This document shows positions 5,995 through 45,403 of a stretch of 45,403 nt of DNA, in pieces. The position numbers were made by a program, and so were the translations under genes. The stretch is from Escherichia phage ECBP5: sequence record NC_027330.1; one strand, given 5' to 3'. Position 1 is the stretch's first letter; each line of letters opens with the position of its first letter. The notes beneath the pieces were generated by a model that was not told the DNA's origin, did no database searches, and saw only the letters and a program-made list of their open reading frames with translations.

Positions 5995-6078
5995 GTACTA
6001 GTTTGATAGTACAGTTGTTGAGAGTTATTCTCAGTCTAGTATACTAGACTAGACCGAATCGTACTAGTTGGCTAGTAC
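5995..6078. repeat. Cluster of three short palindromes
   Basis: GTACTAGTTTGATAGTAC, AGTCTAGTATACTAGACT and GTACTAGTTGGCTAGTAC in tandem. Confidence 0.7.
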
Positions 6079-6274: not shown

Positions 6275-6313
6275 AGCCCTCTTGAGTGTAGTAGCTCAGG
6301 AGGGCTTTATTTT
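6275..6313 (+). terminator. Rho-independent terminator candidate
   Basis: 12-bp stem AGCCCTCTTGAG/CTCAGGAGGGCT (one mismatch) followed by TTATTTT. Confidence 0.6.
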
Positions 6314-6331
6314 GTCTAGTACACTAGACTG
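6313..6331. repeat. Palindrome AGTCTAGTACACTAGACT family copy
   Basis: GTCTAGTACACTAGACTGG. Confidence 0.7.
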
Positions 6332-6335
6332 GAGA

Positions 6336-9541: not shown

Positions 9542-9578
9542 GCCACTTCGGTGGCTTTAGTATAGTGTACTAGACTGG
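9541..9578 (+). terminator. Hairpin with TTCG loop plus partial palindrome-family copy
   Basis: GCCAC-TTCG-GTGGC followed by TTT, then AGTGTACTAGACTGG. Confidence 0.4.
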
Positions 9579-9585
9579 AGTTAAT

Positions 9586-9863: not shown

Positions 9864-10136
9864 ATGGTTAAAGATACTAGCTGGCAGGCTTACCAAGAAA
9901 TCCTGCGCGGTGGTGTGGCTGTTAAGCAAGCTGAGAAAGTCTTGCAAGTTATTAACTACTTCCCTGAAGGTGTTACCCGTGCTCAGTTGGCTCAGGGTAT
10001 GAACATGCCAATCAACTCAGTTTGTGGTCGTGTCAACGAGCTGCTGAAAGCTGAGGTAATCTATGTGTCAGGTACTGGTAAGTGTCCAGTAACTGGTAGG
10101 ACTGTTGAGATGCTGAAGGTGGTTGAGTATGAGTAA
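9864..10136 (+). CDS. Putative winged-helix DNA-binding protein (90 aa)
   Basis: Helix-turn-helix-like segment VTRAQLAQGMNMPINSVCGRVNELLK followed by a beta-hairpin-like YVSGTGKCPVTGRTVEM; assignment by eye only. Confidence 0.5.
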   Translation: MVKDTSWQAYQEILRGGVAVKQAEKVLQVINYFPEGVTRAQLAQGMNMPINSVCGRVNELLKAEVIYVSGTGKCPVTGRTVEMLKVVEYE

Positions 10137-10815
10137 TATTATCGCAGGCGCTATTGAGCTTGAAGAAGCAAAAGAATCCAAGGCCAAAAGCTTCAGTGTA
10201 GAAGATGTGCTTAAGAAGATTAAGGAGCACACGTTTGGCTGTGTAGTAGCTGGTGGTTATTGTCGTGACGTGTTTCATGGGGTGGCACATAAGGACATTG
10301 ACATCTGCATGTATAACTTCCACCCAAATGATGCTGGCGAGGTTGTCTTAGCTAATATGTTGTGGAAGTGGTTATCAACCAATGTTGCTGCTGAGAACAT
10401 TACAGCAACTAGTGGGGAGGACTATGATGACAAGCGCATACATTTTGTATGGCATCTTCCCTATCACAATGTGGACATCATCTGCTGGAACGCACACTCC
10501 CATACAAAAGTATTAAGTGGCTTTGACTGCAACCTTAATCAGTTCTACTTGCCGTCAACTGTTCCTTACTTTGATGGTGAGTCTGAGTATACACCAGACA
10601 TCAAGGAACACCCTGTATACTTTGGAGATGATTGCCCTGACTTCTTATTATTCCTTAAAGATCTACCCGATGAACGTGTAACTAAGATGGTTCAGAAGCA
10701 TCAGGCATTCTACCCAGCAGCTTGGTGTGGAACACAGGAGCCTGTTGTCTACTTTGATAAGATGCAAGGCTTTCCATGTGGGTTTGATGAAGACTTAGAT
10801 GAGATAGCTTGGTAA
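10123..10815 (+). CDS. Pol-beta-superfamily nucleotidyltransferase, CCA-adding/poly(A) polymerase head-domain type (230 aa)
   Basis: GGYCRDVFHGVAHKDIDI matches the GGxVRD...KDxD signature of the tRNA nucleotidyltransferase/PAP family; downstream FDCNLNQ resembles a degenerate RRDxTIN motif. Confidence 0.6.
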   Translation: MSMSNIIAGAIELEEAKESKAKSFSVEDVLKKIKEHTFGCVVAGGYCRDVFHGVAHKDIDICMYNFHPNDAGEVVLANMLWKWLSTNVAAENITATSGEDYDDKRIHFVWHLPYHNVDIICWNAHSHTKVLSGFDCNLNQFYLPSTVPYFDGESEYTPDIKEHPVYFGDDCPDFLLFLKDLPDERVTKMVQKHQAFYPAAWCGTQEPVVYFDKMQGFPCGFDEDLDEIAW

Positions 10816-13716: not shown

Positions 13717-13802
13717 CAGTTAGCTCCCTCTACTGAGGGAGTTTGCTAGAGGGCCTAGTGTGGTTCTCTATCAAGCTATCAACTAACGTTAGGAGAAACA
13801 CA

Positions 13803-14567
13803 ATGTCTTTAGATAACTTTGACTTCGGCGCAGACCTAGCAGAAGCGTCTGGTGTCAAACGAGTAAACCCTGAAGTTGGCTTGCACTTTGCTCGTTTGCG
13901 TAGTGTGATTCACTTAGGCTCAATTGCTGCCATGTACCGTGGAAAGCCAAAGCCACCAGTTAACAAGGCTGCTTTCATCTTTGAACTTAAGGGCGACCTT
14001 GATGAGATTGATGACCTGCACCCTGACAACGGTGAGCCATTGTGCATCGGCATCGGGGTTAACCTTACCAAAGGTGACAATGCCAAGCTCACAGAAGTTA
14101 TGGCAGCTCTCATCTCTAAGAAGGAGATGGAGGAAGGTACTGTCAAAGGTATGGATGACCTGATTGGTCGTGTCTGCCAGCTTGACCTGAAGGGCAGTGA
14201 TGCCAAGGGTGATGACGGTAAGCCTAAGTACGTTGACATCAAATCACTCAGCCCTGTGGCTAAGGCATTCGCCGCACAGATTCCTGAGCTGTCAGTAGCT
14301 GGCGTAGGTCACTGCCGCCTGTCTCAGCTGTCTATGGCTGCGATGGATGAGCTGAACGTGTTCCTCGATGTCCAAGAGGGCATCATGAAATCTGAGGAGT
14401 GGAAAGCAGGAACGCACCCAGCAATCGCTCTGGTAGAGGAAATCCGCAAGGAGCGTCCGAACTATGCCAAGGCTGAGAAGAAGTCTGACAAAGGCGCTGA
14501 CGAGCCACAGGGCGAGCAGGAGCCGTCTAAGCCAGCTGAGCAGATGAACACCGATGAGGAGTTCTAG
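13803..14567 (+). CDS. Putative ssDNA-binding protein (T7 gp2.5-like by size and tail); acidic C-terminus ending in Phe
   Basis: AGGAGAAAC RBS before ATG 13803; C-terminus ...EQEPSKPAEQMNTDEEF; N-terminal DNFDFGA motif shared with the exonuclease; SSB call is an inference. Confidence 0.6.
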   Translation: MSLDNFDFGADLAEASGVKRVNPEVGLHFARLRSVIHLGSIAAMYRGKPKPPVNKAAFIFELKGDLDEIDDLHPDNGEPLCIGIGVNLTKGDNAKLTEVMAALISKKEMEEGTVKGMDDLIGRVCQLDLKGSDAKGDDGKPKYVDIKSLSPVAKAFAAQIPELSVAGVGHCRLSQLSMAAMDELNVFLDVQEGIMKSEEWKAGTHPAIALVEEIRKERPNYAKAEKKSDKGADEPQGEQEPSKPAEQMNTDEEF

Positions 14568-14609
14568 TCTAGTACACTAGACTGAAGCCGTACTAGTTAG
14601 CTAGTACGG
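14564..14609. repeat. Two adjacent palindromes (family copies)
   Basis: TCTAGTCTAGTACACTAGACTGA and CCGTACTAGTTAGCTAGTACGG. Confidence 0.7.
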
Positions 14610-14610
14610 T

Positions 14611-14633
14611 ATTAGGCACTACAATAGGAATAG
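14611..14633 (+). promoter_or_regulatory. Phage-RNAP promoter candidate (consensus copy)
   Basis: ATTAGGCACTACAATAGGAATAG. Confidence 0.6.
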
Positions 14634-14750
14634 AATGCTCAACTTATGCATCCCTGTATCTGGCGGTCGCTACAAAGGATACAGGTTGCCTATAGGCTGT
14701 AATGGTGTCCAAAGCCAACGGCTTGGGTGGTGCATAAGCATGAGCATTCT
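14634..14750 (+). other. Structured element between tandem promoters (nested inverted repeats); candidate small RNA or replication origin
   Basis: Outer inverted repeat ATGCTCAACTTATGCA / TGCATAAGCATGAGCAT enclosing hairpins CCTGTATC..GATACAGG and CCAAGCC..GGCTTGG; no ORF. Confidence 0.35.
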
Positions 14751-14755
14751 TAACC

Positions 14756-14779
14756 TATTAAGCACTACAATAGGAATAG
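14756..14779 (+). promoter_or_regulatory. Phage-RNAP promoter candidate
   Basis: CTATTAAGCACTACAATAGGAATAG. Confidence 0.55.
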
Positions 14780-14814
14780 TAGAATAGCCACACCGTGTGT
14801 GCTCCCTTCTCAAC

Positions 14815-14838
14815 CTATTAAGCACTAAATAGATATAG
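14815..14838 (+). promoter_or_regulatory. Promoter-like repeat with 2-bp deletion in the core (possibly weak or inactive)
   Basis: CTATTAAGCACTAAATAGATATAG; about 35-bp duplication of the preceding promoter block. Confidence 0.35.
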
Positions 14839-14875
14839 TGAATATCTCTTTCAAACTTTATGAGGAATTAATATT

Positions 14876-15290: not shown

Positions 15291-15413
15291 ATGCCTGTTT
15301 TCAAAAGGGTTTGTATGCTGTGTGGTACAGCGTTTTCTCCGGTTAAGAAAAGTCCATTCCTTTGCATAAGGTGTTACAGGAGTTGTGTTAAAGAGAGGGC
15401 TACTAATGTTTGA
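15291..15413 (+). CDS. Small zinc-ribbon-like protein (40 aa)
   Basis: GGAGGG RBS 5 nt upstream; CxxC...CxxC (CMLCG...CIRCY); stop overlaps the exonuclease start; not in ORF track. Confidence 0.4.
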   Translation: MPVFKRVCMLCGTAFSPVKKSPFLCIRCYRSCVKERATNV

Positions 15414-16491
15414 TAACTTCGACTTTGGGGCTGAGGTAACTGAACGTGTAAGCCCTGTAAAGCTGTGGCCTACTGAGGGTAGTGTGGTTGGCTTAGTAGA
15501 TGCTGACCTGTTGCCATATAACATTGCTTATGGCCTTGACCCGCTGAAGGTATTGCGAGCACAGAACAGAGTAGAGTCAGGTGACTGCTCCAGTATTAGC
15601 GAGACACCAGAGTTTATTGATGCTGCTGAGTCTATGGCTACCCGCATGAACAACTGGCTTGAGGAAGCTGGCTGTGATGCTGCCATTCCATATATGACGA
15701 AATCAGATAGCAACTTCAGGCTTGATGTAGCTTTCTCCAGACCGTACAAAGGTCAGCGTAAGAAGGAGAAGCCACCATTCTTCTATGAGTTGCGTGACTT
15801 CCTTATCAGCCACATGGGTGCTGTGATGTCAGATGGTGAGGAGGCTGATGACCTTATCTCTATGGAGGCTGAGCGTCGCAACAAGCTGCTTGAGGAACAG
15901 GGCATTGTATTAGGCTCACCTACTCATAAAGAGTTCTGTGACTTTGTTATCATCTCATCTGACAAGGATAGCCGCATCACAGCTGGCAGACACTATGACC
16001 CTTATCACATGAAGCTCACCTTTGGTACACCTGTTGGTGAGCTTGAGCCTGTTTATAAAGACGGGAAGATTAAGACTATCAAGGGTAGCGGCTTGCGCTT
16101 CTTTTATGCTCAGCTTCTAATGGGCGACCAGATTGATAATTACACTGGTATCCCTCGCTACAGGTTGCAGAAGGTCTACGAGCTGCTTGGTCAGCTTAAG
16201 ACAGAGCAAGAGCTTTATTATGCTGTACTTGAAGCTTATAAAGATAAGTATGGCAAGGGTATGGTGGTGGAAAACTACCGTGGAACTAAGAAGTTCTATG
16301 ATGACTACATGGATGACTTTGGAGTACCGCCACCTGATTATGAACTTTGGAAAGGCAAGAAAGCTTTCCTCACACCTTATCAGCTGATGGTAGAGCAAGG
16401 GAGACTTGCGTACATGCAGAAGTTTAAGGGTGACATCTGGAGAGCTAATTGCAAGCTTCCATCAGGTGGAGACTTGAGCGCATGGAGTTAA
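15406..16491 (+). CDS. 5'-3' exonuclease (T7 gp6-like, FEN family)
   Basis: VGLVDADLLPY, IISSDKDSRI and GDQIDNYTGIP parallel T7 gp6 segments; start at ATG 15406 (AGAGAGG RBS). Confidence 0.88.
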   Translation: MFDNFDFGAEVTERVSPVKLWPTEGSVVGLVDADLLPYNIAYGLDPLKVLRAQNRVESGDCSSISETPEFIDAAESMATRMNNWLEEAGCDAAIPYMTKSDSNFRLDVAFSRPYKGQRKKEKPPFFYELRDFLISHMGAVMSDGEEADDLISMEAERRNKLLEEQGIVLGSPTHKEFCDFVIISSDKDSRITAGRHYDPYHMKLTFGTPVGELEPVYKDGKIKTIKGSGLRFFYAQLLMGDQIDNYTGIPRYRLQKVYELLGQLKTEQELYYAVLEAYKDKYGKGMVVENYRGTKKFYDDYMDDFGVPPPDYELWKGKKAFLTPYQLMVEQGRLAYMQKFKGDIWRANCKLPSGGDLSAWS

Positions 16492-16889
16492 AGAAAACTA
16501 CTAAAGCTGATTTAGTTTGGATTAAGAAAGAGCTGCTGGAGAAGCAGCGTTACCGTTGCCCTATTACTGGTAGAGACTTACGGACAATGAAGCCAGCTAA
16601 CTTATGTGTTGACCACTGTCACACATCTGGTGTTATTAGAGCTGTGCTGCCAAAGGGTATCAATGGACTTGAAGGAAAGATTAAAACACTGATGCAACGG
16701 TTTGGTGGCTTTGAGGCCACTGATGTAGTAGGACAGGCCAAAGCCTTATATGCACTAGCAGACTTCATCCTTTTACACAGAGTGCCACAGACACCTTATC
16801 TGCATCATACACACCTGTCACCAGCAGAGCAGAGAGCCAAGCGTAATGCTCAGGCTCGTAAGCGGTATGCTTTGAAGAAGAAGGAGTAA
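16482..16889 (+). CDS. Endonuclease VII-like Holliday-junction resolvase
   Basis: CPITG...CVDHCHTSG zinc/His-Me finger motif; GGTGGAG RBS before ATG 16482. Confidence 0.7.
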   Translation: MELKKTTKADLVWIKKELLEKQRYRCPITGRDLRTMKPANLCVDHCHTSGVIRAVLPKGINGLEGKIKTLMQRFGGFEATDVVGQAKALYALADFILLHRVPQTPYLHHTHLSPAEQRAKRNAQARKRYALKKKE

Positions 16890-18013
16890 TGATGACTAAG
16901 ATGACTGAGAAGCAGCTTAAGGAGTGCCTTGTAGCTAAGATGACAACCAGTGAGATTGCTGAGAAGTTTGGCTTATCTCACAGGGCTGTTCAAATTCGCA
17001 AGGCAGCTTTAGCTAAGAAAGGCTACAGCCCTGAGCATGACATGGTGCATCAGGTTCCTGAGGGCTTCTTGCTTAAGGGTCAGTCAACCTTATATGGTAA
17101 GGATGGGGATGTTAAGCTGACTTGGGTTAAGTCATCTATTGACCGTGACAAGCAGCTTGAGCTACTGCGTGAGTTCATTGCTGGCATGGGTGATGACCTT
17201 CCTCGTGAGCTTCCAGTTACCTGTGGTGGTGTAGGTAGTGATGACCTGTTAAACCAGTTCACTATCACTGACTATCACTTAGGTATGCTGGCATGGGATG
17301 AGGAGTCTGGTGACAATTGGGATATGAAGATTGCAACTGACCTAATCCTCAAGTGGTTCCAAGAGGCTATCCGCTGTAGTCCTATGGCTAAGACAGCTGT
17401 GCTGGCTCAGCTTGGTGACTTCTTGCATTGGGATGGGCTGGATGCAGTTACCCCAAGTAGCGGTCATGTACTTGATGCGGACACACGCTTCCAGAAGCTG
17501 GCTCGTGCTGCCATCTACATCACAAGAGCTGTGATTAAGATGCTGCTTGAGAAGCATGAGAAAGTTCATGTTGTCTTTGCAGAGGGTAATCATGATATGG
17601 CTAGCTCAATCTGGATGCGTGAGTTCCTTACAGTGATGTATGAGGATGAACCTCGTATTACCATTGACCAGAGTCCAGACCCTTATTATTGCTATGTGCA
17701 TGGTGATACTACGTTGTTCTACCATCACGGCCATAAGAAGAAGATGGAGCAGTTGTCTGATGTGTTCGCTGCTAAGTTCCGTAGTGAGTGGGGTGCTAGT
17801 AAATATTCCTATGCTCACGTAGGTCACTTGCATCATCACAAAGTGATTGAAAGCCCACTGATGAAGGTAGAGCAGCATCAGACTCTGGCAGCTAAGGATG
17901 CTTATGCAAGCCGTGGTGGTTGGCTTAGCAAGCGAGCTGCTACTGTAATCACTTACCATAAGAAGTTTGGGGAAGTATGTAGGGCTACCATCACACCAGA
18001 GATGGTAAGTTAG
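16889..18013 (+). CDS. Calcineurin-like metallophosphoesterase with N-terminal HTH-like segment
   Basis: Metallophosphoesterase motif series DYH, GDFLHWD, GNHD, HHGH, GHLHHH; N-terminal TSEIAEKFGLSHRAVQIRKAALAKKG. Confidence 0.75.
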   Translation: MMTKMTEKQLKECLVAKMTTSEIAEKFGLSHRAVQIRKAALAKKGYSPEHDMVHQVPEGFLLKGQSTLYGKDGDVKLTWVKSSIDRDKQLELLREFIAGMGDDLPRELPVTCGGVGSDDLLNQFTITDYHLGMLAWDEESGDNWDMKIATDLILKWFQEAIRCSPMAKTAVLAQLGDFLHWDGLDAVTPSSGHVLDADTRFQKLARAAIYITRAVIKMLLEKHEKVHVVFAEGNHDMASSIWMREFLTVMYEDEPRITIDQSPDPYYCYVHGDTTLFYHHGHKKKMEQLSDVFAAKFRSEWGASKYSYAHVGHLHHHKVIESPLMKVEQHQTLAAKDAYASRGGWLSKRAATVITYHKKFGEVCRATITPEMVS

Positions 18014-18029
18014 AAACTACAATAGGACT
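18009..18029 (+). promoter_or_regulatory. Phage-RNAP promoter candidate (variant)
   Basis: GTTAGAAACTACAATAGGACT overlapping the upstream stop codon. Confidence 0.45.
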
Positions 18030-18052
18030 AACAACTTAGGAAACTTACTGTA

Positions 18053-18640
18053 ATGAAAGACACTTATATCTTTGACTTGGATGGTACATTAGCTTGCGGT
18101 AAACACCGCTTGCATCTGCTCCCAACTAAGGATACTGCACACCGTACAGAAGCTTGGGATAGTTTCAATCTTGCTGCTGGTGGTGATTCTCCAATCCTTG
18201 ACAACATCCGACTGATGAATGAATTGTTCCAGTTTGGTAAGCGTATCATCATCCTGTCTGGTCGTTGTGATGTAGCTAAGGCTATTACTGAGAAGTGGCT
18301 GTGGGAACATGGCTGTAACTTCAATCAGCTTATTATGCGCCCAGCAGCTGACCATCGTCGTGATATTGAGTTCAAGGAAGAGAAGCTGCGTGATATTGGC
18401 CTTGAGCGAATTGTAGCTTGCTTTGATGACCTTGAGCATGTTGCCAAGCACATCCGTAGCTTGGGTGTTACTTGTCATCTTGTCACTCACTACGACACTA
18501 ATTGTGTGTCAGTGAGCCAACATGTTCGCTACCCTGAGCCAAAGACTGATGATGATAACTTGTGGGATACAGAGGAAGGTGCAACTTTCAATGAAGGTTA
18601 TAACCAAGCTATTGAAGACACCAAGGAGCTTAATAAATGA
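18053..18640 (+). CDS. HAD-family phosphatase resembling the 3'-phosphatase domain of T4 polynucleotide kinase
   Basis: HAD motif I FDLDGTL; ILSGR, KEEKL and DDLEHV segments parallel the T4 Pnk phosphatase domain. Confidence 0.8.
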   Translation: MKDTYIFDLDGTLACGKHRLHLLPTKDTAHRTEAWDSFNLAAGGDSPILDNIRLMNELFQFGKRIIILSGRCDVAKAITEKWLWEHGCNFNQLIMRPAADHRRDIEFKEEKLRDIGLERIVACFDDLEHVAKHIRSLGVTCHLVTHYDTNCVSVSQHVRYPEPKTDDDNLWDTEEGATFNEGYNQAIEDTKELNK

Positions 18641-19203
18641 TTGTAATTCTTAATGCTCCACCGGCATCTGGTAAAGATACCATTGGAGGAATCTTAGCTG
18701 ACTGGCATGGCTGGAAAGCTCTTAGCTTCAAGAAGCCTATGTTTGACTTAGCTAAGTCTCTACTAGGTGAAGAGAAGTATGCACAGTTCCTTGAGTTGTA
18801 CAATGACCGCAGCACTAAGGACAAGCCTACTAGTCTTTGTGGTGGGCTGTCACCTCGTGACTTCTTCATCCATATCTCTGAGAAGATGTGCAAGCCACTG
18901 TTTGGTGAACAATACTTTGGTGAGCGCTTCCTTGAGCTGGTTAGCAATGAGGTAACTACTGTAGTTACTGATGGCGGCTTCCCTCAGGAAGTTCGTCCAA
19001 TGCTGGATGCAGGTCATAAGGTTGTTATTGTACGCTTGTTCCGCAAGGGCTATGACTTCTCTAATGACTCACGCCGCTACTTAACTGAGCAGGATTTCTC
19101 AGACTTGCCAACCTTCCGTAGCCCTTCATTCCTTGATGTTGAGCTTACAGAGGGTCATCCTTATCGTGCAGCTGATTACATCTTTAATAAGCTAGAGGGT
19201 TAA
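18637..19203 (+). CDS. P-loop nucleotide/polynucleotide kinase (T4 dNMP kinase-like)
   Basis: P-loop NAPPASGKDT resembles T4 gp1 dNMP kinase SGKDT; ATGA overlap with the phosphatase gene. Confidence 0.7.
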   Translation: MIVILNAPPASGKDTIGGILADWHGWKALSFKKPMFDLAKSLLGEEKYAQFLELYNDRSTKDKPTSLCGGLSPRDFFIHISEKMCKPLFGEQYFGERFLELVSNEVTTVVTDGGFPQEVRPMLDAGHKVVIVRLFRKGYDFSNDSRRYLTEQDFSDLPTFRSPSFLDVELTEGHPYRAADYIFNKLEG

Positions 19204-19204
19204 T

Positions 19205-20158
19205 ATGAACGTATTTGAGTTCCTTGGCTACCCAGCTGACCACCGACCTAAGAGCAAGGTTGTGCAGCTGGTTAAGCATTGGGATGAAGTACCTGAAAGC
19301 CGTAAGCAGTATCCGTATTATGCGCAGGTCAAGAAAGACGGTGTGTTTGGTATTGTTGTGGTAACTAAAGATGATGATGGCAACATTGCTGTTTCTGTCT
19401 TCGGTCGCACAGGTGAGCAGCTCAGTAACACTGAGGCAATCTGCTCACGCTTCCTTGAAGGTTACATTGCTGAGGGCATCTACATTGGAGAGGTGCTTAC
19501 TCAATCTCCATGTAGCCTTGAGGAGCTGTCAGGTATCCTCAACCCTAATCGTGTCAATAAGCTGGACATCAATCAGGAAGTTATCAAGTGGAACTTGTAC
19601 ATTGCTCTGCATGATTGCTTAACTGAAAAGATGTTCATAGCTGGCACATCAGCTGGCATCAGCTACCACACACGCCACGCTAGCTTGATGAAGCGTATTG
19701 CAGGTACTGACCTAGAGGAAAGCGCACTACCTTACACAGTCATTCACGATGACAAGCAGAAGGAACAGTTCACTAAAGCTTGCATTGCTGCTGGGGAGGA
19801 GGGTGCAGTCTACAAGCGTCCTGGCTGTGAGTGGGAAGCTGGTCATAAAGGCTGGCATCAGATGAAGGAAGTACGTGAGGTAACGTATGACCTAAAGTGT
19901 GTAGGCTACGAGGAAGGGTCAGGCAAGTACAAAGGAAAGGTCGCTAACCTTATCTTCCAATGGAGAGATGGTGAGTCTATTAAGGCCATGCTTGGTAAGG
20001 GCTATACCCACAAGGATGCTGAAGATATGTTCAATGACCCAAGCTTGTTTATGCATAAGGTCTTCCGTATTCGTGGCCTGCAAGATAGTAGCAAAGGCAA
20101 GATTAGATTACCTAAAGTACAAGAGGAACGTTATGACAAAGTTACCGGAGATTATTAG
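19205..20158 (+). CDS. ATP-dependent DNA ligase
   Basis: Ligase motif I KKDGV, motif IV EGAVYK, motif V WHQMKEV. Confidence 0.9.
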   Translation: MNVFEFLGYPADHRPKSKVVQLVKHWDEVPESRKQYPYYAQVKKDGVFGIVVVTKDDDGNIAVSVFGRTGEQLSNTEAICSRFLEGYIAEGIYIGEVLTQSPCSLEELSGILNPNRVNKLDINQEVIKWNLYIALHDCLTEKMFIAGTSAGISYHTRHASLMKRIAGTDLEESALPYTVIHDDKQKEQFTKACIAAGEEGAVYKRPGCEWEAGHKGWHQMKEVREVTYDLKCVGYEEGSGKYKGKVANLIFQWRDGESIKAMLGKGYTHKDAEDMFNDPSLFMHKVFRIRGLQDSSKGKIRLPKVQEERYDKVTGDY

Positions 20159-21509: not shown

Positions 21510-23102
21510 ATGAGAGGGTATAGCCCTATCATCACTAAGGGTGGTGATGTTCCTTATATGAACAATCGCATGAAGGTTAAGGAAGAATCTGGCAAGCCAA
21601 AGTCAACCCTAGCTGAGCGATATAAAACCCTCTCAGCTAAGAGGGAGACACAGCTTTCACGAGCTAAGATGTATGCAAAGATTACCCTGCCAGCTCTGTT
21701 CACTGAAGACCAGAGTACTGACCAAGGTGATGCATATACTCAGAATAGCTGGCAGAGCTTAGGTGCGCAGGGTGTTAACCATCTGGCTAACAAGTTGGTT
21801 ATGACTTGGTTCCCGCCACAGCGTTCCTTCTTTAAGCTAGAGTTTACAGATGAGGCTAAGCAGGCTCTATACGATACTGGTACAGATGACGTTGAATTAC
21901 TCAGTATCATGGCTAGGGCTGAGAACAAAGCTAGACTTCTGCATGAACAAATCCAAGGACGCATTGCATGGACACAAGCTGCTAAGCATTTAATTGTAGC
22001 TGGCAATGCTATGCTCTATGCACCAGTTAATGACAGTCTTGTATGTTATCCGATGGATAAGTATGTAGTTAAACGTTCAAAGACTGGACGTGTAACTCAG
22101 ATGATTCTGGAGGAAGTTAAGTGCTTGAGTGAGTTCCCTCCAGCTGTTCAGGCTATCATCAAGGCTAAGAGGTTTAACCTTAAGCAAGATGATACTGTTG
22201 AGTTGTACACACAAGCTAAGTGGGATGGTAGTATGTATGTCATCACACAGGAAGCTGTGGATACTACAATAGGGAAGGAATACCGAGTCAAGCCTGAGGA
22301 GTCACCATTCATCGTCCTGACTTGGGAACGTCTGTATGGAGAGGACTATGGTCGTGGCTTAGTAGAATCTTGCTACGGCGACTTATTCACTTACGCTTTC
22401 CTGTCTAAAGCTGTTGCTAAAGGTTGTGCGCTTATGTCAGAGGTTAAATTCCTCGTCAAGCGCGGTTCAGCCACTTCACCAACTGCACATGCTAAAGCCG
22501 AAACAGGTGATTATGTATGGGGAGAGGAGGGTGATGTAAGTGTTGTACAGCTAGAGAAGTATGGTGATTACCAGACAGTCTTATCAGTTCTTGAAACATA
22601 CTCTAAGCGACTAGGTCAGGCATTCCTTCTGGCATCTGCTAACCGCAGGGATGCAGAGCGAGTGACAACCTATGAGCTGCGTATGGATGCAATGGAGCTG
22701 GAGACATCATTAGGTGGAACCTATTCTCAGATTGCTGTATCAGGTCAGCTACCTTATGCTAACCTGTTGCTCCAGCGCTCTGGCTTTAAGCTCCCTGCTA
22801 CTGATGCTGTACCAATCATTATCACAGGTATTGAGGCGCTAGGTAAAGCTGGTGAGCTTGATAAGCTTATGCAGCTGTCAGAGATGATGGCAATCCCTAA
22901 TAGCTGGTCGACAGCTGCACAGGAGCGCATCAAGTGGTCTGACTATATCGCATTCATCGCAGCTAACCTTAACATGGAGACTAGTTGGCTGATGACTGAA
23001 GATGAGTACAACAAGATGAAGCAGGCACAGCAACAGCTAATGCAGCAACAGCAACTTATGGAAGCTGCTGGTAAAGCTGCCCCACAAATGATGAAACAAT
23101 AA
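21510..23102 (+). CDS. Head-tail connector (portal) protein (T7 gp8-like)
   Basis: 530 aa; SWQSLGAQGVNHLANKLVM parallels T7 gp8 PWQAVGARGLNNLASKLML; TAAGGAGGG RBS. Confidence 0.9.
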   Translation: MRGYSPIITKGGDVPYMNNRMKVKEESGKPKSTLAERYKTLSAKRETQLSRAKMYAKITLPALFTEDQSTDQGDAYTQNSWQSLGAQGVNHLANKLVMTWFPPQRSFFKLEFTDEAKQALYDTGTDDVELLSIMARAENKARLLHEQIQGRIAWTQAAKHLIVAGNAMLYAPVNDSLVCYPMDKYVVKRSKTGRVTQMILEEVKCLSEFPPAVQAIIKAKRFNLKQDDTVELYTQAKWDGSMYVITQEAVDTTIGKEYRVKPEESPFIVLTWERLYGEDYGRGLVESCYGDLFTYAFLSKAVAKGCALMSEVKFLVKRGSATSPTAHAKAETGDYVWGEEGDVSVVQLEKYGDYQTVLSVLETYSKRLGQAFLLASANRRDAERVTTYELRMDAMELETSLGGTYSQIAVSGQLPYANLLLQRSGFKLPATDAVPIIITGIEALGKAGELDKLMQLSEMMAIPNSWSTAAQERIKWSDYIAFIAANLNMETSWLMTEDEYNKMKQAQQQLMQQQQLMEAAGKAAPQMMKQ

Positions 23103-39325: not shown

Positions 39326-39335
39326 TAAGGTTGGT

Positions 39336-39356
39336 CAGTCTAGTACGCTAGACTGG
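39336..39356. repeat. Palindrome family copy, terminator-like
   Basis: CAGTCTAGTACGCTAGACTGG followed by CCTCTTTCT. Confidence 0.6.
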
Positions 39357-39368
39357 CCTCTTTCTACT

Positions 39369-43033: not shown

Positions 43034-43486
43034 CTAGTGGCTGGTCAGGCAGCTGCTGTGAGCTGGCTAGGTGGCTTACGGATAGCCGATTGTGAGCAGC
43101 CAGTGAGCCGCTGTGGGCTTCAGCTCCGCTGTGGCTACGGTTGGCTTGCCAGTGGCTTGAGGCGCTCTGTGAGCTGCTGAGGGCTGTGGCTTGCTGTACT
43201 CGTGTGCTAGTACGCTGCTGTGTGTATCTGTCTTTAGTCTGATGGGCTACTGTCTTTAGTTTGCTGCACCACTGGTAGCTTATTGGGTAGCTCATAGGTA
43301 GCTTACAAGGCTCACAGCTTGCTGGTACTACTGAGGGCTTACTAGGTAGCTTGCTATCACTGACTAGGTAGCTGCTGTTAGTTCACTAGGTAGCTAGCTA
43401 TGGCTTACTAGGTAGTTACTAGGTGGATTGATGTAAGCTTACTCAAGCTCTCTCTTAGTGCATCATTCGATGCACAATATAAGAAG

Positions 43487-43510
43487 AATAAGACACTACA
43501 ATAAGAATAG
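43487..43510 (+). promoter_or_regulatory. Phage-RNAP promoter-like motif (variant) near presumed left end
   Basis: AATAAGACACTACAATAAGAATAG. Confidence 0.4.
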
Positions 43511-43588
43511 AGTACGCCTTGCCAACAGCTCTCATGAGCTATCTAGGTGGCTTACTATCACTTACATCCAACTAACTAGGAGGCTTAC

Positions 43589-45192: not shown

Positions 45193-45403
45193 ATGAGCAG
45201 GGAATTATCTTTAAGGTTTAATGAATCTAATAAGCGCATGGATGCATTGCTAAGTGCAATGAATAGGGCTAACCCTCTATCAGTAGAGTATGAGGAGCTT
45301 AGTAAAATGGCTCACAGCGAGTTGCAAACAATGCAAGCTATTAACAACAGCTCATTGCAACAACTAGAAATGCACTGGACAACCTCAGGTGACTTTAGCC
45401 ACC
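45193..45403 (+). CDS. Early hypothetical protein, 5' portion (continues at 1..234 across the wrap-around)
   Basis: ATG at 45193 one base after the upstream stop; open to the window end. Confidence 0.5.
   Translation, partial: MSRELSLRFNESNKRMDALLSAMNRANPLSVEYEELSKMAHSELQTMQAINNSSLQQLEMHWTTSGDFSH
45196..45403. repeat. Exact duplicate of 1-208
   Basis: Identical to window start. Confidence 0.9.

Follow-up and report, generated by a model that had tools for sequence, protein, structure and literature searches.

The complete genome of Escherichia phage ECBP5 (sequence record NC_027330.1; its whole length of 45,403 nucleotides [nt] is referred to here as the window) carries on its plus strand, at 16482-20158, five adjacent genes for an endonuclease VII, a helix-turn-helix (HTH) metallophosphoesterase, a HAD phosphatase, a P-loop kinase, and a ligase. 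On balance, sequence comparisons indicate that this block probably belongs, as their distal portion, to the "class II" (DNA-metabolism) genes of an SP6/T7-like podophage and serves host-DNA scavenging and replication, and that it is no cassette devoted to RNA repair. The new point of this analysis is that there is good evidence, from homology and gene neighborhoods across phages, for a genuine linkage of three enzymes, the metallophosphoesterase, the HAD protein, and the kinase, whereas endonuclease VII and the ligase are neighbors of this trio through general genome layout only. A first-pass annotation of the window had placed the five genes at these coordinates, where the list of open reading frames (ORFs) indeed contains all of them, and had proposed that they form a toolkit for the repair of broken nucleic acid ends. 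The enzyme families that it named were confirmed by profile searches, at significance levels well outside chance, and all the motifs that it quoted are found in the translations (DYH, GDFLHWD, GNHD, HHGH, and GHLHHH in the metallophosphoesterase; FDLDGTL in the HAD protein; PPASGKDT in the kinase; and KKDG, EGAVYK, and WHQMK in the ligase). The block, together with the gene directly upstream, consists of the following genes.

15406..16491 (approximate), plus strand: 5'-3' exonuclease (T7 gp6/FEN-like); phrog_107 "exonuclease", 2.1e-62; annotated as "exonuclease" in phages PP99 and Roth32
16482..16889, plus strand: endonuclease VII, junction-resolving nuclease; Pfam PF02945, phrog_423
16889..18013, plus strand: HTH-metallophosphoesterase, 374 amino acids (aa); phrog_704
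18053..18640, plus strand: predicted stand-alone T4-Pnk-type HAD 3'-phosphatase domain, 195 aa, acidic at its C-terminal end (tail); Pfam HAD_PNKP
18637..19203, plus strand: T4-gp1-like P-loop nucleotide kinase, 188 aa; phrog_139
19205..20158, plus strand: minimal ATP-dependent DNA ligase, 317 aa; Pfam DNA_ligase_A_M and DNA_ligase_OB_2

For the favored reading, the substrates, the order of reactions, and the physiological role are inferred from homology, fold, and synteny. The gp6-like exonuclease and endonuclease VII would process and resolve DNA, such as replication and recombination intermediates, and would probably help to degrade host DNA, as in T7. The HTH-metallophosphoesterase would act as a DNA-directed nuclease of the Mre11/SbcD-like type, and the HAD protein would strip 3'-phosphates from DNA ends or nucleotides, leaving 3'-OH groups usable by exonucleases, polymerase, and ligase. 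The gp1-like kinase would convert the released 5'-deoxynucleoside monophosphates (dNMPs) into the diphosphates (dNDPs), thereby feeding phage DNA synthesis, and the DNA ligase would join Okazaki fragments and nicks. In T7, the ligase gp1.3 and the nucleotide kinase gp1.7 are placed together, and host DNA is recycled via gp3 and gp6 into deoxynucleoside triphosphates (dNTPs). Nucleotide salvage combined with a replication ligase had been given by the first-pass annotation as its alternative, and it is this alternative that better fits the kinase and the ligase.

Judged by its sequence profile and predicted fold, the kinase is T4-gp1/dNMP-kinase-like and not Pnk-like. It matched phrog_139 "dNMP kinase" (3.5e-41) and no Pfam family, and its assignment relies on hmmsearch, jackhmmer, and fold searches. 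When its profile was compared with the PDB sequences, many matches were confined to the P-loop, among them T4 Pnk, and the sole full-length alignment was that with the T4 dNMP kinase 1dek, in which residues 2-196 of the chain were paired with positions 6-144 of the profile. The AF2 model of the kinase (pLDDT 96.4) had 1dek as its best Foldseek match (E = 6.6e-6, TM 0.63-0.65), and polynucleotide kinases ranked far lower in this search (Trl1 kinase at 9.6 and 9.2, mammalian PNKP at 8.8, and T4 Pnk outside the top 60). T4 gp1 directly matches four ORFs of the kinase family (E = 6.5e-9 to 5.5e-7); a jackhmmer search seeded by gp1 recovered all 122 kinase-family ORFs of the locus set, whereas one seeded by the T4 Pnk kinase domain recovered none. 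Invariant positions in an alignment of 31 kinase sequences are N6, G12-K13-D14-T15, R74, E82, K86, D112, G114, E118, and G138, and D144-S145-R146 are nearly so. Pnk kinases have an essential general-base Asp and an acceptor-phosphate Arg (D35/R38) some 20 residues past the P-loop Lys (PMC2831316). No counterpart of either is conserved in the 31-sequence alignment, in which the corresponding segment reads SFKxPM. Shared with gp1 are the SGKDT P-loop, D112...E118, and R-x-G138...D144-S145; the Arg of the D-x-R motif is replaced by Gly (DGGF). The phage enzyme is probably a dNMP kinase. Genetic work in P. putida has shown that a gp1-like dNMP kinase supplies thymidylate kinase activity there (PMC10653934). 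Two further comparisons contributed nothing to this assignment: a single-sequence search of the PDB gave no match, and an hhalign comparison with T4 gp1, which covered 44 columns at 70% probability, was not relied on.

The domain matches of the ligase, to nucleotidyltransferase and OB domains, identify it as a DNA ligase. Pfam DNA_ligase_A_M was matched over residues 25-221 (32.1 bits against a cutoff of 26.2, E = 1.2e-7) and DNA_ligase_OB_2 over residues 237-309 (E = 8e-6; 26.2 bits, just under the cutoff of 28). These two were the only ligase-related Pfam families found up to E = 10, so that neither an RNA-ligase family nor PNKP_ligase appeared within that limit. The protein also matched phrog_114 (5.8e-61). 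Its PDB matches were all ATP-dependent DNA ligases (9fzx at 2.2e-8, 6rar at 1.5e-6, and, weakly, T7 ligase), with no RNA ligase up to E = 1, and its NCBIfam matches were DNA-ligase models, except for a weak purB match (E = 0.077). K43 lies in KKDG; this motif, EGAVYK, and WHQMK align with 9fzx, as does the C-terminal RYDK (motif VI) with the RLDK of 9fzx. The GenBank label "PNKP adenylyltransferase" on some homologs pointed to a Pnkp-type ligase, an assignment that the Pfam search did not reproduce. A ligase gene just upstream of the structural genes is an SP6-type feature (PMC9145550).

The HAD protein, by contrast with the kinase and ligase, fits the Pnk analogy: its residues mark it as a genuine T4-Pnk-type phosphatase and the sole true end-healing family member of the block. 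It matched Pfam HAD_PNKP (PF25109) with 57.3 bits against a cutoff of 27.6 (E = 2.5e-15) and phrog_415 at 5e-59, and BLASTP aligned it with T4 Pnk residues 163-300, that is, the whole phosphatase domain, at 29% identity (E = 1e-5). In this alignment D8/D10, S69/R71, and D104 of the phage protein correspond to D165/D167, S211/R213, and D254 of T4 Pnk, K108 pairs with K258, and D125/D126 pair with D277/D278, and T12 completes the DxDxT motif. The resemblance to the T4 Pnk 3'-phosphatase domain noted in the first-pass annotation hence extends to all catalytic residues. The roles of D165/D167 (DxDxT), S211, K258, and D278 in T4 Pnk have been described, and the mononucleotide thymidine 3'-monophosphate (3'-TMP) is also a substrate of its phosphatase (PMC3592404). 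Most catalytic residues are invariant in an alignment of 25 HAD sequences, in which D8 is at least 90% conserved and position 69 is commonly T; the only significant matches of the corresponding profile were polynucleotide kinase-phosphatases (Pnkp1 at 3.5e-14; T4 Pnk at 1.7e-10 and 4.3e-9). As the best 120 homologs are all stand-alone phosphatases, of 141-201 aa, the GenBank label "polynucleotide kinase" is a misnomer for this protein.

The third member of the trio has an N-terminal HTH (approximately residues 1-45), a beta-rich linker, and an Mre11/SbcD-like binuclear phosphoesterase domain with the motif residues D128-x-H130, G176-D177-xx-H180, G233-N-H-D236, H279-H282, and G312-H-x-H315. 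These motifs and the fold are those of the Mre11/SbcD nucleases. It matched phrog_704 "DNA repair exonuclease" (6.9e-145); the Pfam Metallophos match was under the family cutoff (18.2 bits, E = 0.0035). The protein falls outside the lambda-phosphatase/PPP clade, to which the phosphoesterase module of bacterial Pnkp belongs. Neither its single sequence nor a 31-sequence profile found a solved relative among the PDB sequences, and only the fold search was informative. Phage PP99, which is 91% identical and completely annotated, has no Rad50/SbcC ATPase partner among its listed genes, and the ORF lists, which cover window positions 1-22500, contain no unassigned ORF of Rad50/SbcC size. More than 5894 homologs were found, the best 120 listed being all at least 55% identical, and 76 columns of the 31-sequence alignment are invariant. 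Constraint on the metallophosphoesterase appears to be much stronger than on the other block genes. Identities of 50-60% were also seen across phage contigs with otherwise unrecognizable neighbor genes.

The linkage of these proteins was assessed in viral loci anchored on each member of the trio, whose neighbors were scored by iterative hidden Markov model searches. The numbers of loci with each neighbor were as follows.

Metallophosphoesterase anchor, 80 loci: HAD 13; kinase 12; ligase 3; exonuclease/endonuclease VII 8/8
Kinase anchor, 80 loci: HAD 35; metallophosphoesterase 9; ligase 26 (both orders); exonuclease/endonuclease VII 12/10
HAD anchor, 78 loci: kinase 29; metallophosphoesterase 19; ligase 10; exonuclease/endonuclease VII 25/25

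Since the composition of the neighborhood varies between loci, the five-gene set is not a fixed module: the metallophosphoesterase was detected without any other block gene in 57 of its 80 loci, and the HAD gene stood alone in 22 of 78. Where members of the trio do co-occur, their arrangement is well defined. The metallophosphoesterase gene was directly followed by that of the HAD protein in 40 of 41 pairs, and the HAD gene by that of the kinase in 41 of 72, the remaining pairs being 0.6-3.3 kb apart. Autographiviridae and Drexlerviridae share the order metallophosphoesterase>HAD>kinase; a T1-like Klebsiella phage of the Drexlerviridae has the three genes contiguous, with no ligase gene in the 8.5 kb covered there. 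In Aeromonas phage Lolek the ligase gene lies between the helicase and DNA polymerase genes, and the trio stays together, before the RNA polymerase gene; because of this placement, the adjacency of kinase and ligase is lineage specific. The HAD gene is the one that is missing in Edwardsiella phage WCT72P1 and Proteus phage Pm5460, both of which have a metallophosphoesterase, the kinase, and the ligase.

Gene fusions point in the same direction. An exhaustive search with the kinase profile yielded 12,271 cluster representatives, and the kinase is present in 1,535 phage records of many types. Two of the best 150 matches, P0376 (403 aa) and P0411 (461 aa), carry a HAD_PNKP domain at the N terminus and, joined to it by a linker with the conserved motif AAG..M.K.G.F.GPELHG, a gp1-like kinase at the C terminus. 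P0376 was found on three contigs, and directly downstream of it, on a 60.7-kb phage-like contig, a metallophosphoesterase homolog is encoded (50% identity, E = 1e-144). The fusion and the neighborhood conserved across families are good evidence that the metallophosphoesterase, the HAD protein, and the kinase work together. In the loci scored, no such evidence tied endonuclease VII or the ligase to the trio, and none of the loci scanned contained a Pnk-type kinase domain. No functional study of the trio was found in the literature, in which the cluster has annotation-level mentions only. A separate group of contigs (16 loci) has a DNA-ligase homolog upstream of the gp1-like kinase, either adjacent or 1.3-3.9 kb off, and no HAD or metallophosphoesterase gene there, an echo of the T7 gp1.3/gp1.7 arrangement.

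Several observations weigh against the favored reading. A Pnk-type 3'-phosphatase fused to or paired with a kinase is a hallmark of end-healing architecture and favors action on polynucleotides; T4 Pnk and mammalian PNKP, the latter with the order phosphatase-then-kinase, are examples. A simple route of dNMP salvage does not obviously need a 3'-phosphatase. The kinase of the window did not match Pfam DNMK (PF21448), which was matched by 5 of 31 homologs (best 2.5e-6), and, given the lost Arg of the D-x-R motif, its phosphate acceptor may differ from that of gp1. Finally, the DNA-ligase homologs at 26 of the 80 kinase-anchored loci, in both orders, could reflect a functional link between kinase and ligase.

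The strongest of the alternatives, which we regard as unlikely, is that the trio is a split polynucleotide kinase-phosphatase for DNA end healing, the DNA ligase then sealing the ends. The kinase would act on 5'-OH DNA ends, the HAD protein would remove 3'-phosphates, and the metallophosphoesterase would trim blocked ends; the breaks mended would be those that host nucleases make in phage DNA or that arise as it replicates and recombines. The phosphatase active site of T4 Pnk, which is complete in the HAD protein, the phosphatase-then-kinase fusions with an adjoining metallophosphoesterase gene, the retention of the trio across phage families, and the departure of the kinase subfamily from gp1 at the D-x-R motif all speak for it, as do the ligase homologs near the kinase in 26 of 80 loci and a promoter-like element just upstream of the HAD, kinase, and ligase genes. 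The broken-end toolkit of the first-pass annotation survives to this extent: phosphoesterase, phosphatase, and kinase are evolutionarily linked and the HAD protein is Pnk-type. The analogy with Pnkp and T4 Pnk-Rnl, however, fails for the kinase, the ligase, and the clade of the phosphoesterase, and the HAD protein is missing in close relatives.

Somewhat less probable still is that the five enzymes are functionally independent and were grouped by the habits of podophage genomes. The many loci with the metallophosphoesterase (57/80) or the HAD protein (22/78) alone, the occurrence of the kinase in 1535 phage records of many types, the shifting position of the ligase, and the loss of the HAD gene in near relatives are what this would predict, and for endonuclease VII and the ligase it holds. 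It is contradicted for the trio by the adjacency of metallophosphoesterase and HAD genes in 40 of 41 pairs, by the recurrence of the trio order in two phage families, and by the HAD-kinase fusion with a conserved linker adjoining a metallophosphoesterase gene.

A bolder version of the end-healing idea is unlikely: the trio would be a previously unrecognized, widespread phage end-healing machine, split in this phage and fused in some lineages, in which an enzyme of the dNMP-kinase fold has been recruited as a 5'-OH polynucleotide kinase and has displaced the Pnk kinase domain. If this were true, the DNA ligase would allow the phage to reseal DNA (or RNA) cut by defense nucleases that leave 3'-P/5'-OH ends.

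It is very improbable that the block repairs RNA or tRNA cut by anticodon nucleases of the PrrC/RloC type, as T4 Pnk plus Rnl1 or bacterial Pnkp/Hen1 do. In favor of such a role, the founding member of the HAD family heals tRNA ends (PMC3592404) and the catalytic site is intact here, Pnkp1, from an RNA-repair complex of bacteria, is the closest PDB relative of the HAD protein, the relative Roth32 has a tRNA-Ser gene nearby, and a nucleotidyltransferase encoded at 10123-10815 has a CCA-adding-like GG..RD..DxD motif. Against it, the ligase has an OB domain and matches DNA-ligase models only, with no RNA-ligase family even at E<=10, no Pnk-type 5'-kinase was found in the loci scanned, and the metallophosphoesterase is Mre11/SbcD-like, whereas the 2',3'-cyclic phosphodiesterase module of Pnkp is lambda-phosphatase-like. 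A tRNA gene is absent from the window, and the whole-genome annotation of PP99 contains neither an RNA ligase nor a Pnk (its Pnk-type phosphatase is labeled polynucleotide kinase) nor any methyltransferase, Hen1-like or other, Hen1 not having been searched directly. The proposal that kinase, phosphatase, and ligase follow the logic of T4 Pnk/Rnl1 or Pnkp is therefore not sustained, the kinase being gp1-like, the ligase of the DNA type, and the phosphoesterase Mre11/SbcD-like, and defense against host anticodon nucleases found no specific support.

The DNA-metabolism reading also agrees with the genomic setting. The window represents an entire Gajwadongvirus-like genome of the Autographiviridae with approximately 91-94% identity to phages MR4, Roth32, and PP99; a repeat search found a perfect direct terminal repeat of 208 nt (1-208 = 45196-45403), whose presence at both ends identifies it as a complete linear podophage genome. 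In PP99 the block lies between DNA polymerase and SSB-like (single-strand-binding protein) genes on one side and the portal gene on the other, and its genes are labeled exonuclease, endonuclease VII, DNA repair exonuclease, polynucleotide kinase, dNMP kinase, and DNA ligase, so the gene content of the block is already known at annotation level in near-identical phages. The longest ORF of the exonuclease gene starts from a GTG at 15385; this gene is directly upstream of the endonuclease VII gene, overlaps it by 10 nt, and is part of the same block. The endonuclease VII start is an ATG within an ORF that begins with a TTG at 16449, which gives a protein equal in length to PP99 orf27; it matched Pfam PF02945 (32.1 bits against a cutoff of 23.6, E = 1e-7) and phrog_423 (4.5e-35). 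The phrog_862 protein encoded at 13743-14567 on the plus strand, for which no Pfam match was found, ends in an acidic ...NTDEEF tail that brings to mind the C terminus of gp2.5, the single-strand-binding protein of T7.

The tight coupling claimed for the five genes holds at most junctions: the endonuclease VII and metallophosphoesterase genes overlap by 1 nt and the HAD and kinase genes by 4 nt, and 1 nt separates the kinase and ligase genes. The sole exception is a gap of 39 nt between the metallophosphoesterase and HAD genes. As this gap holds a promoter-like element, translational coupling does not run unbroken through all five genes. The element belongs to a family found by repeat search, a phage-RNA-polymerase promoter-like 24-mer, ATTAGGCACTACAATAGGAATAGA, with eight copies and an invariant core, ACTACAATA. 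The promoter function of these elements, including that at 18009-18032, is inferred from their sequence.

18009..18032, plus strand: promoter-like element GTTAGAAACTACAATAGGACTAAC in the metallophosphoesterase-HAD gap, a weaker copy of the 24-mer
14611-14634 and 14757-14780, plus strand: two strong promoter-like 24-mers upstream of the nuclease genes (repeat family D2)
6154, 13414, 14611, 14757, 18009, 24009, 38284, and 43488, plus strand: all promoter-like 24-mers, with a variant at 22252

An identical sequence occupies the same position as the 18009-18032 element in PP99 and Roth32, and a promoter is annotated at the equivalent site of Proteus phage Pm5460. The HAD, kinase, and ligase genes may thus receive extra transcription of their own from this element. 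A scan for sigma-70 promoters was disregarded, as it returned 4 matches against a shuffled expectation of 10.7, and terminator-like matches were mostly located within genes. Other repeats include a palindromic 21-25-mer, GTCTAGTACACTAGACTGGAG, in five copies (6030-6054, 6310-6334, 9556-9580, 14563-14587, and 39334-39358), which might be terminators or a protein-binding site, and direct repeats of about 22 nt of the CTAGGTAGCT type (families D3 and D4) clustered at 43325-43572, close to the right genome end.

As to RNA-related genes, ARAGORN detected no tRNA gene in the whole window. The tRNA-Ser annotated in Roth32 (locus positions 1452-1529) is flanked by the SSB-like gene and by the gene that precedes the exonuclease, and the counterpart of this region in the window (14590-14870) holds two of the promoter-like copies. 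The "nucleotidyltransferase" of 230 aa encoded at 10123-10815 on the plus strand, just upstream of the DNA polymerase gene, matched phrog_1614 (3e-48) and had no Pfam or PDB sequence match. It carries VAGGYCRD...KDIDI, which resembles the GGxxRD...DxD head motif of class II CCA-adding enzymes and poly(A) polymerases. If tRNA 3' ends are indeed its target, it would be the sole RNA-repair-like gene of the genome.

A toolkit for repairing RNA or DNA breaks made by anticodon nucleases would have been notable; the evidence points instead to an ordinary podophage DNA-metabolism block. What is worth knowing is the recurrent trio of metallophosphoesterase, Pnk-type phosphatase, and gp1-like kinase, which crosses phage families and also occurs as a fusion. 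Knowing whether it feeds dNTP synthesis from host DNA or heals ends would give a function to a very common phage gene set, and would correct the widespread misannotation of stand-alone phosphatases as "polynucleotide kinase" and of DNA ligases as "PNKP adenylyltransferase".

Among known systems, the block shares with the T7 class II genes both position and logic, with nucleases, a nucleotide kinase, and a DNA ligase ahead of the structural genes, and its exonuclease is gp6-like. It differs from T7 in having endonuclease VII in place of endonuclease I and a P-loop kinase of the gp1 type and not of the gp1.7 type; T7 has neither an HTH-metallophosphoesterase nor a Pnk-type phosphatase. Compared with T4 gp1 (1dek), the kinase is 12-13% identical, lacks the long insertion of gp1, and has DGGF where gp1 has D-T-R. 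Unlike Mre11/SbcD and stand-alone nucleases such as the P. putida MPE (PDB 6nvo), the phage metallophosphoesterase has a unique N-terminal HTH and beta linker.

With the end-healing systems the likeness is partial. In bacterial Pnkp/Hen1 (Clostridium thermocellum Pnkp; Capnocytophaga Pnkp1-Rnl-Hen1) a kinase and a ligase likewise occur together with a metallophosphoesterase and/or a HAD phosphatase, but the phage proteins are separate, the metallophosphoesterase is of the Mre11/SbcD clade, the ligase belongs with the OB-domain DNA ligases, and the kinase is from another subfamily. Homology to T4 Pnk (PseT) extends across the whole phosphatase domain, with every catalytic residue kept in the HAD protein; there is, however, no Pnk-type kinase domain, the partner kinase being a separate gene of the gp1 family placed downstream of the phosphatase instead of ahead of it, and there is no RNA ligase partner. 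The domain order of mammalian PNKP, phosphatase-then-kinase, is the same as that of the phage genes and of the P0376 and P0411 fusions.

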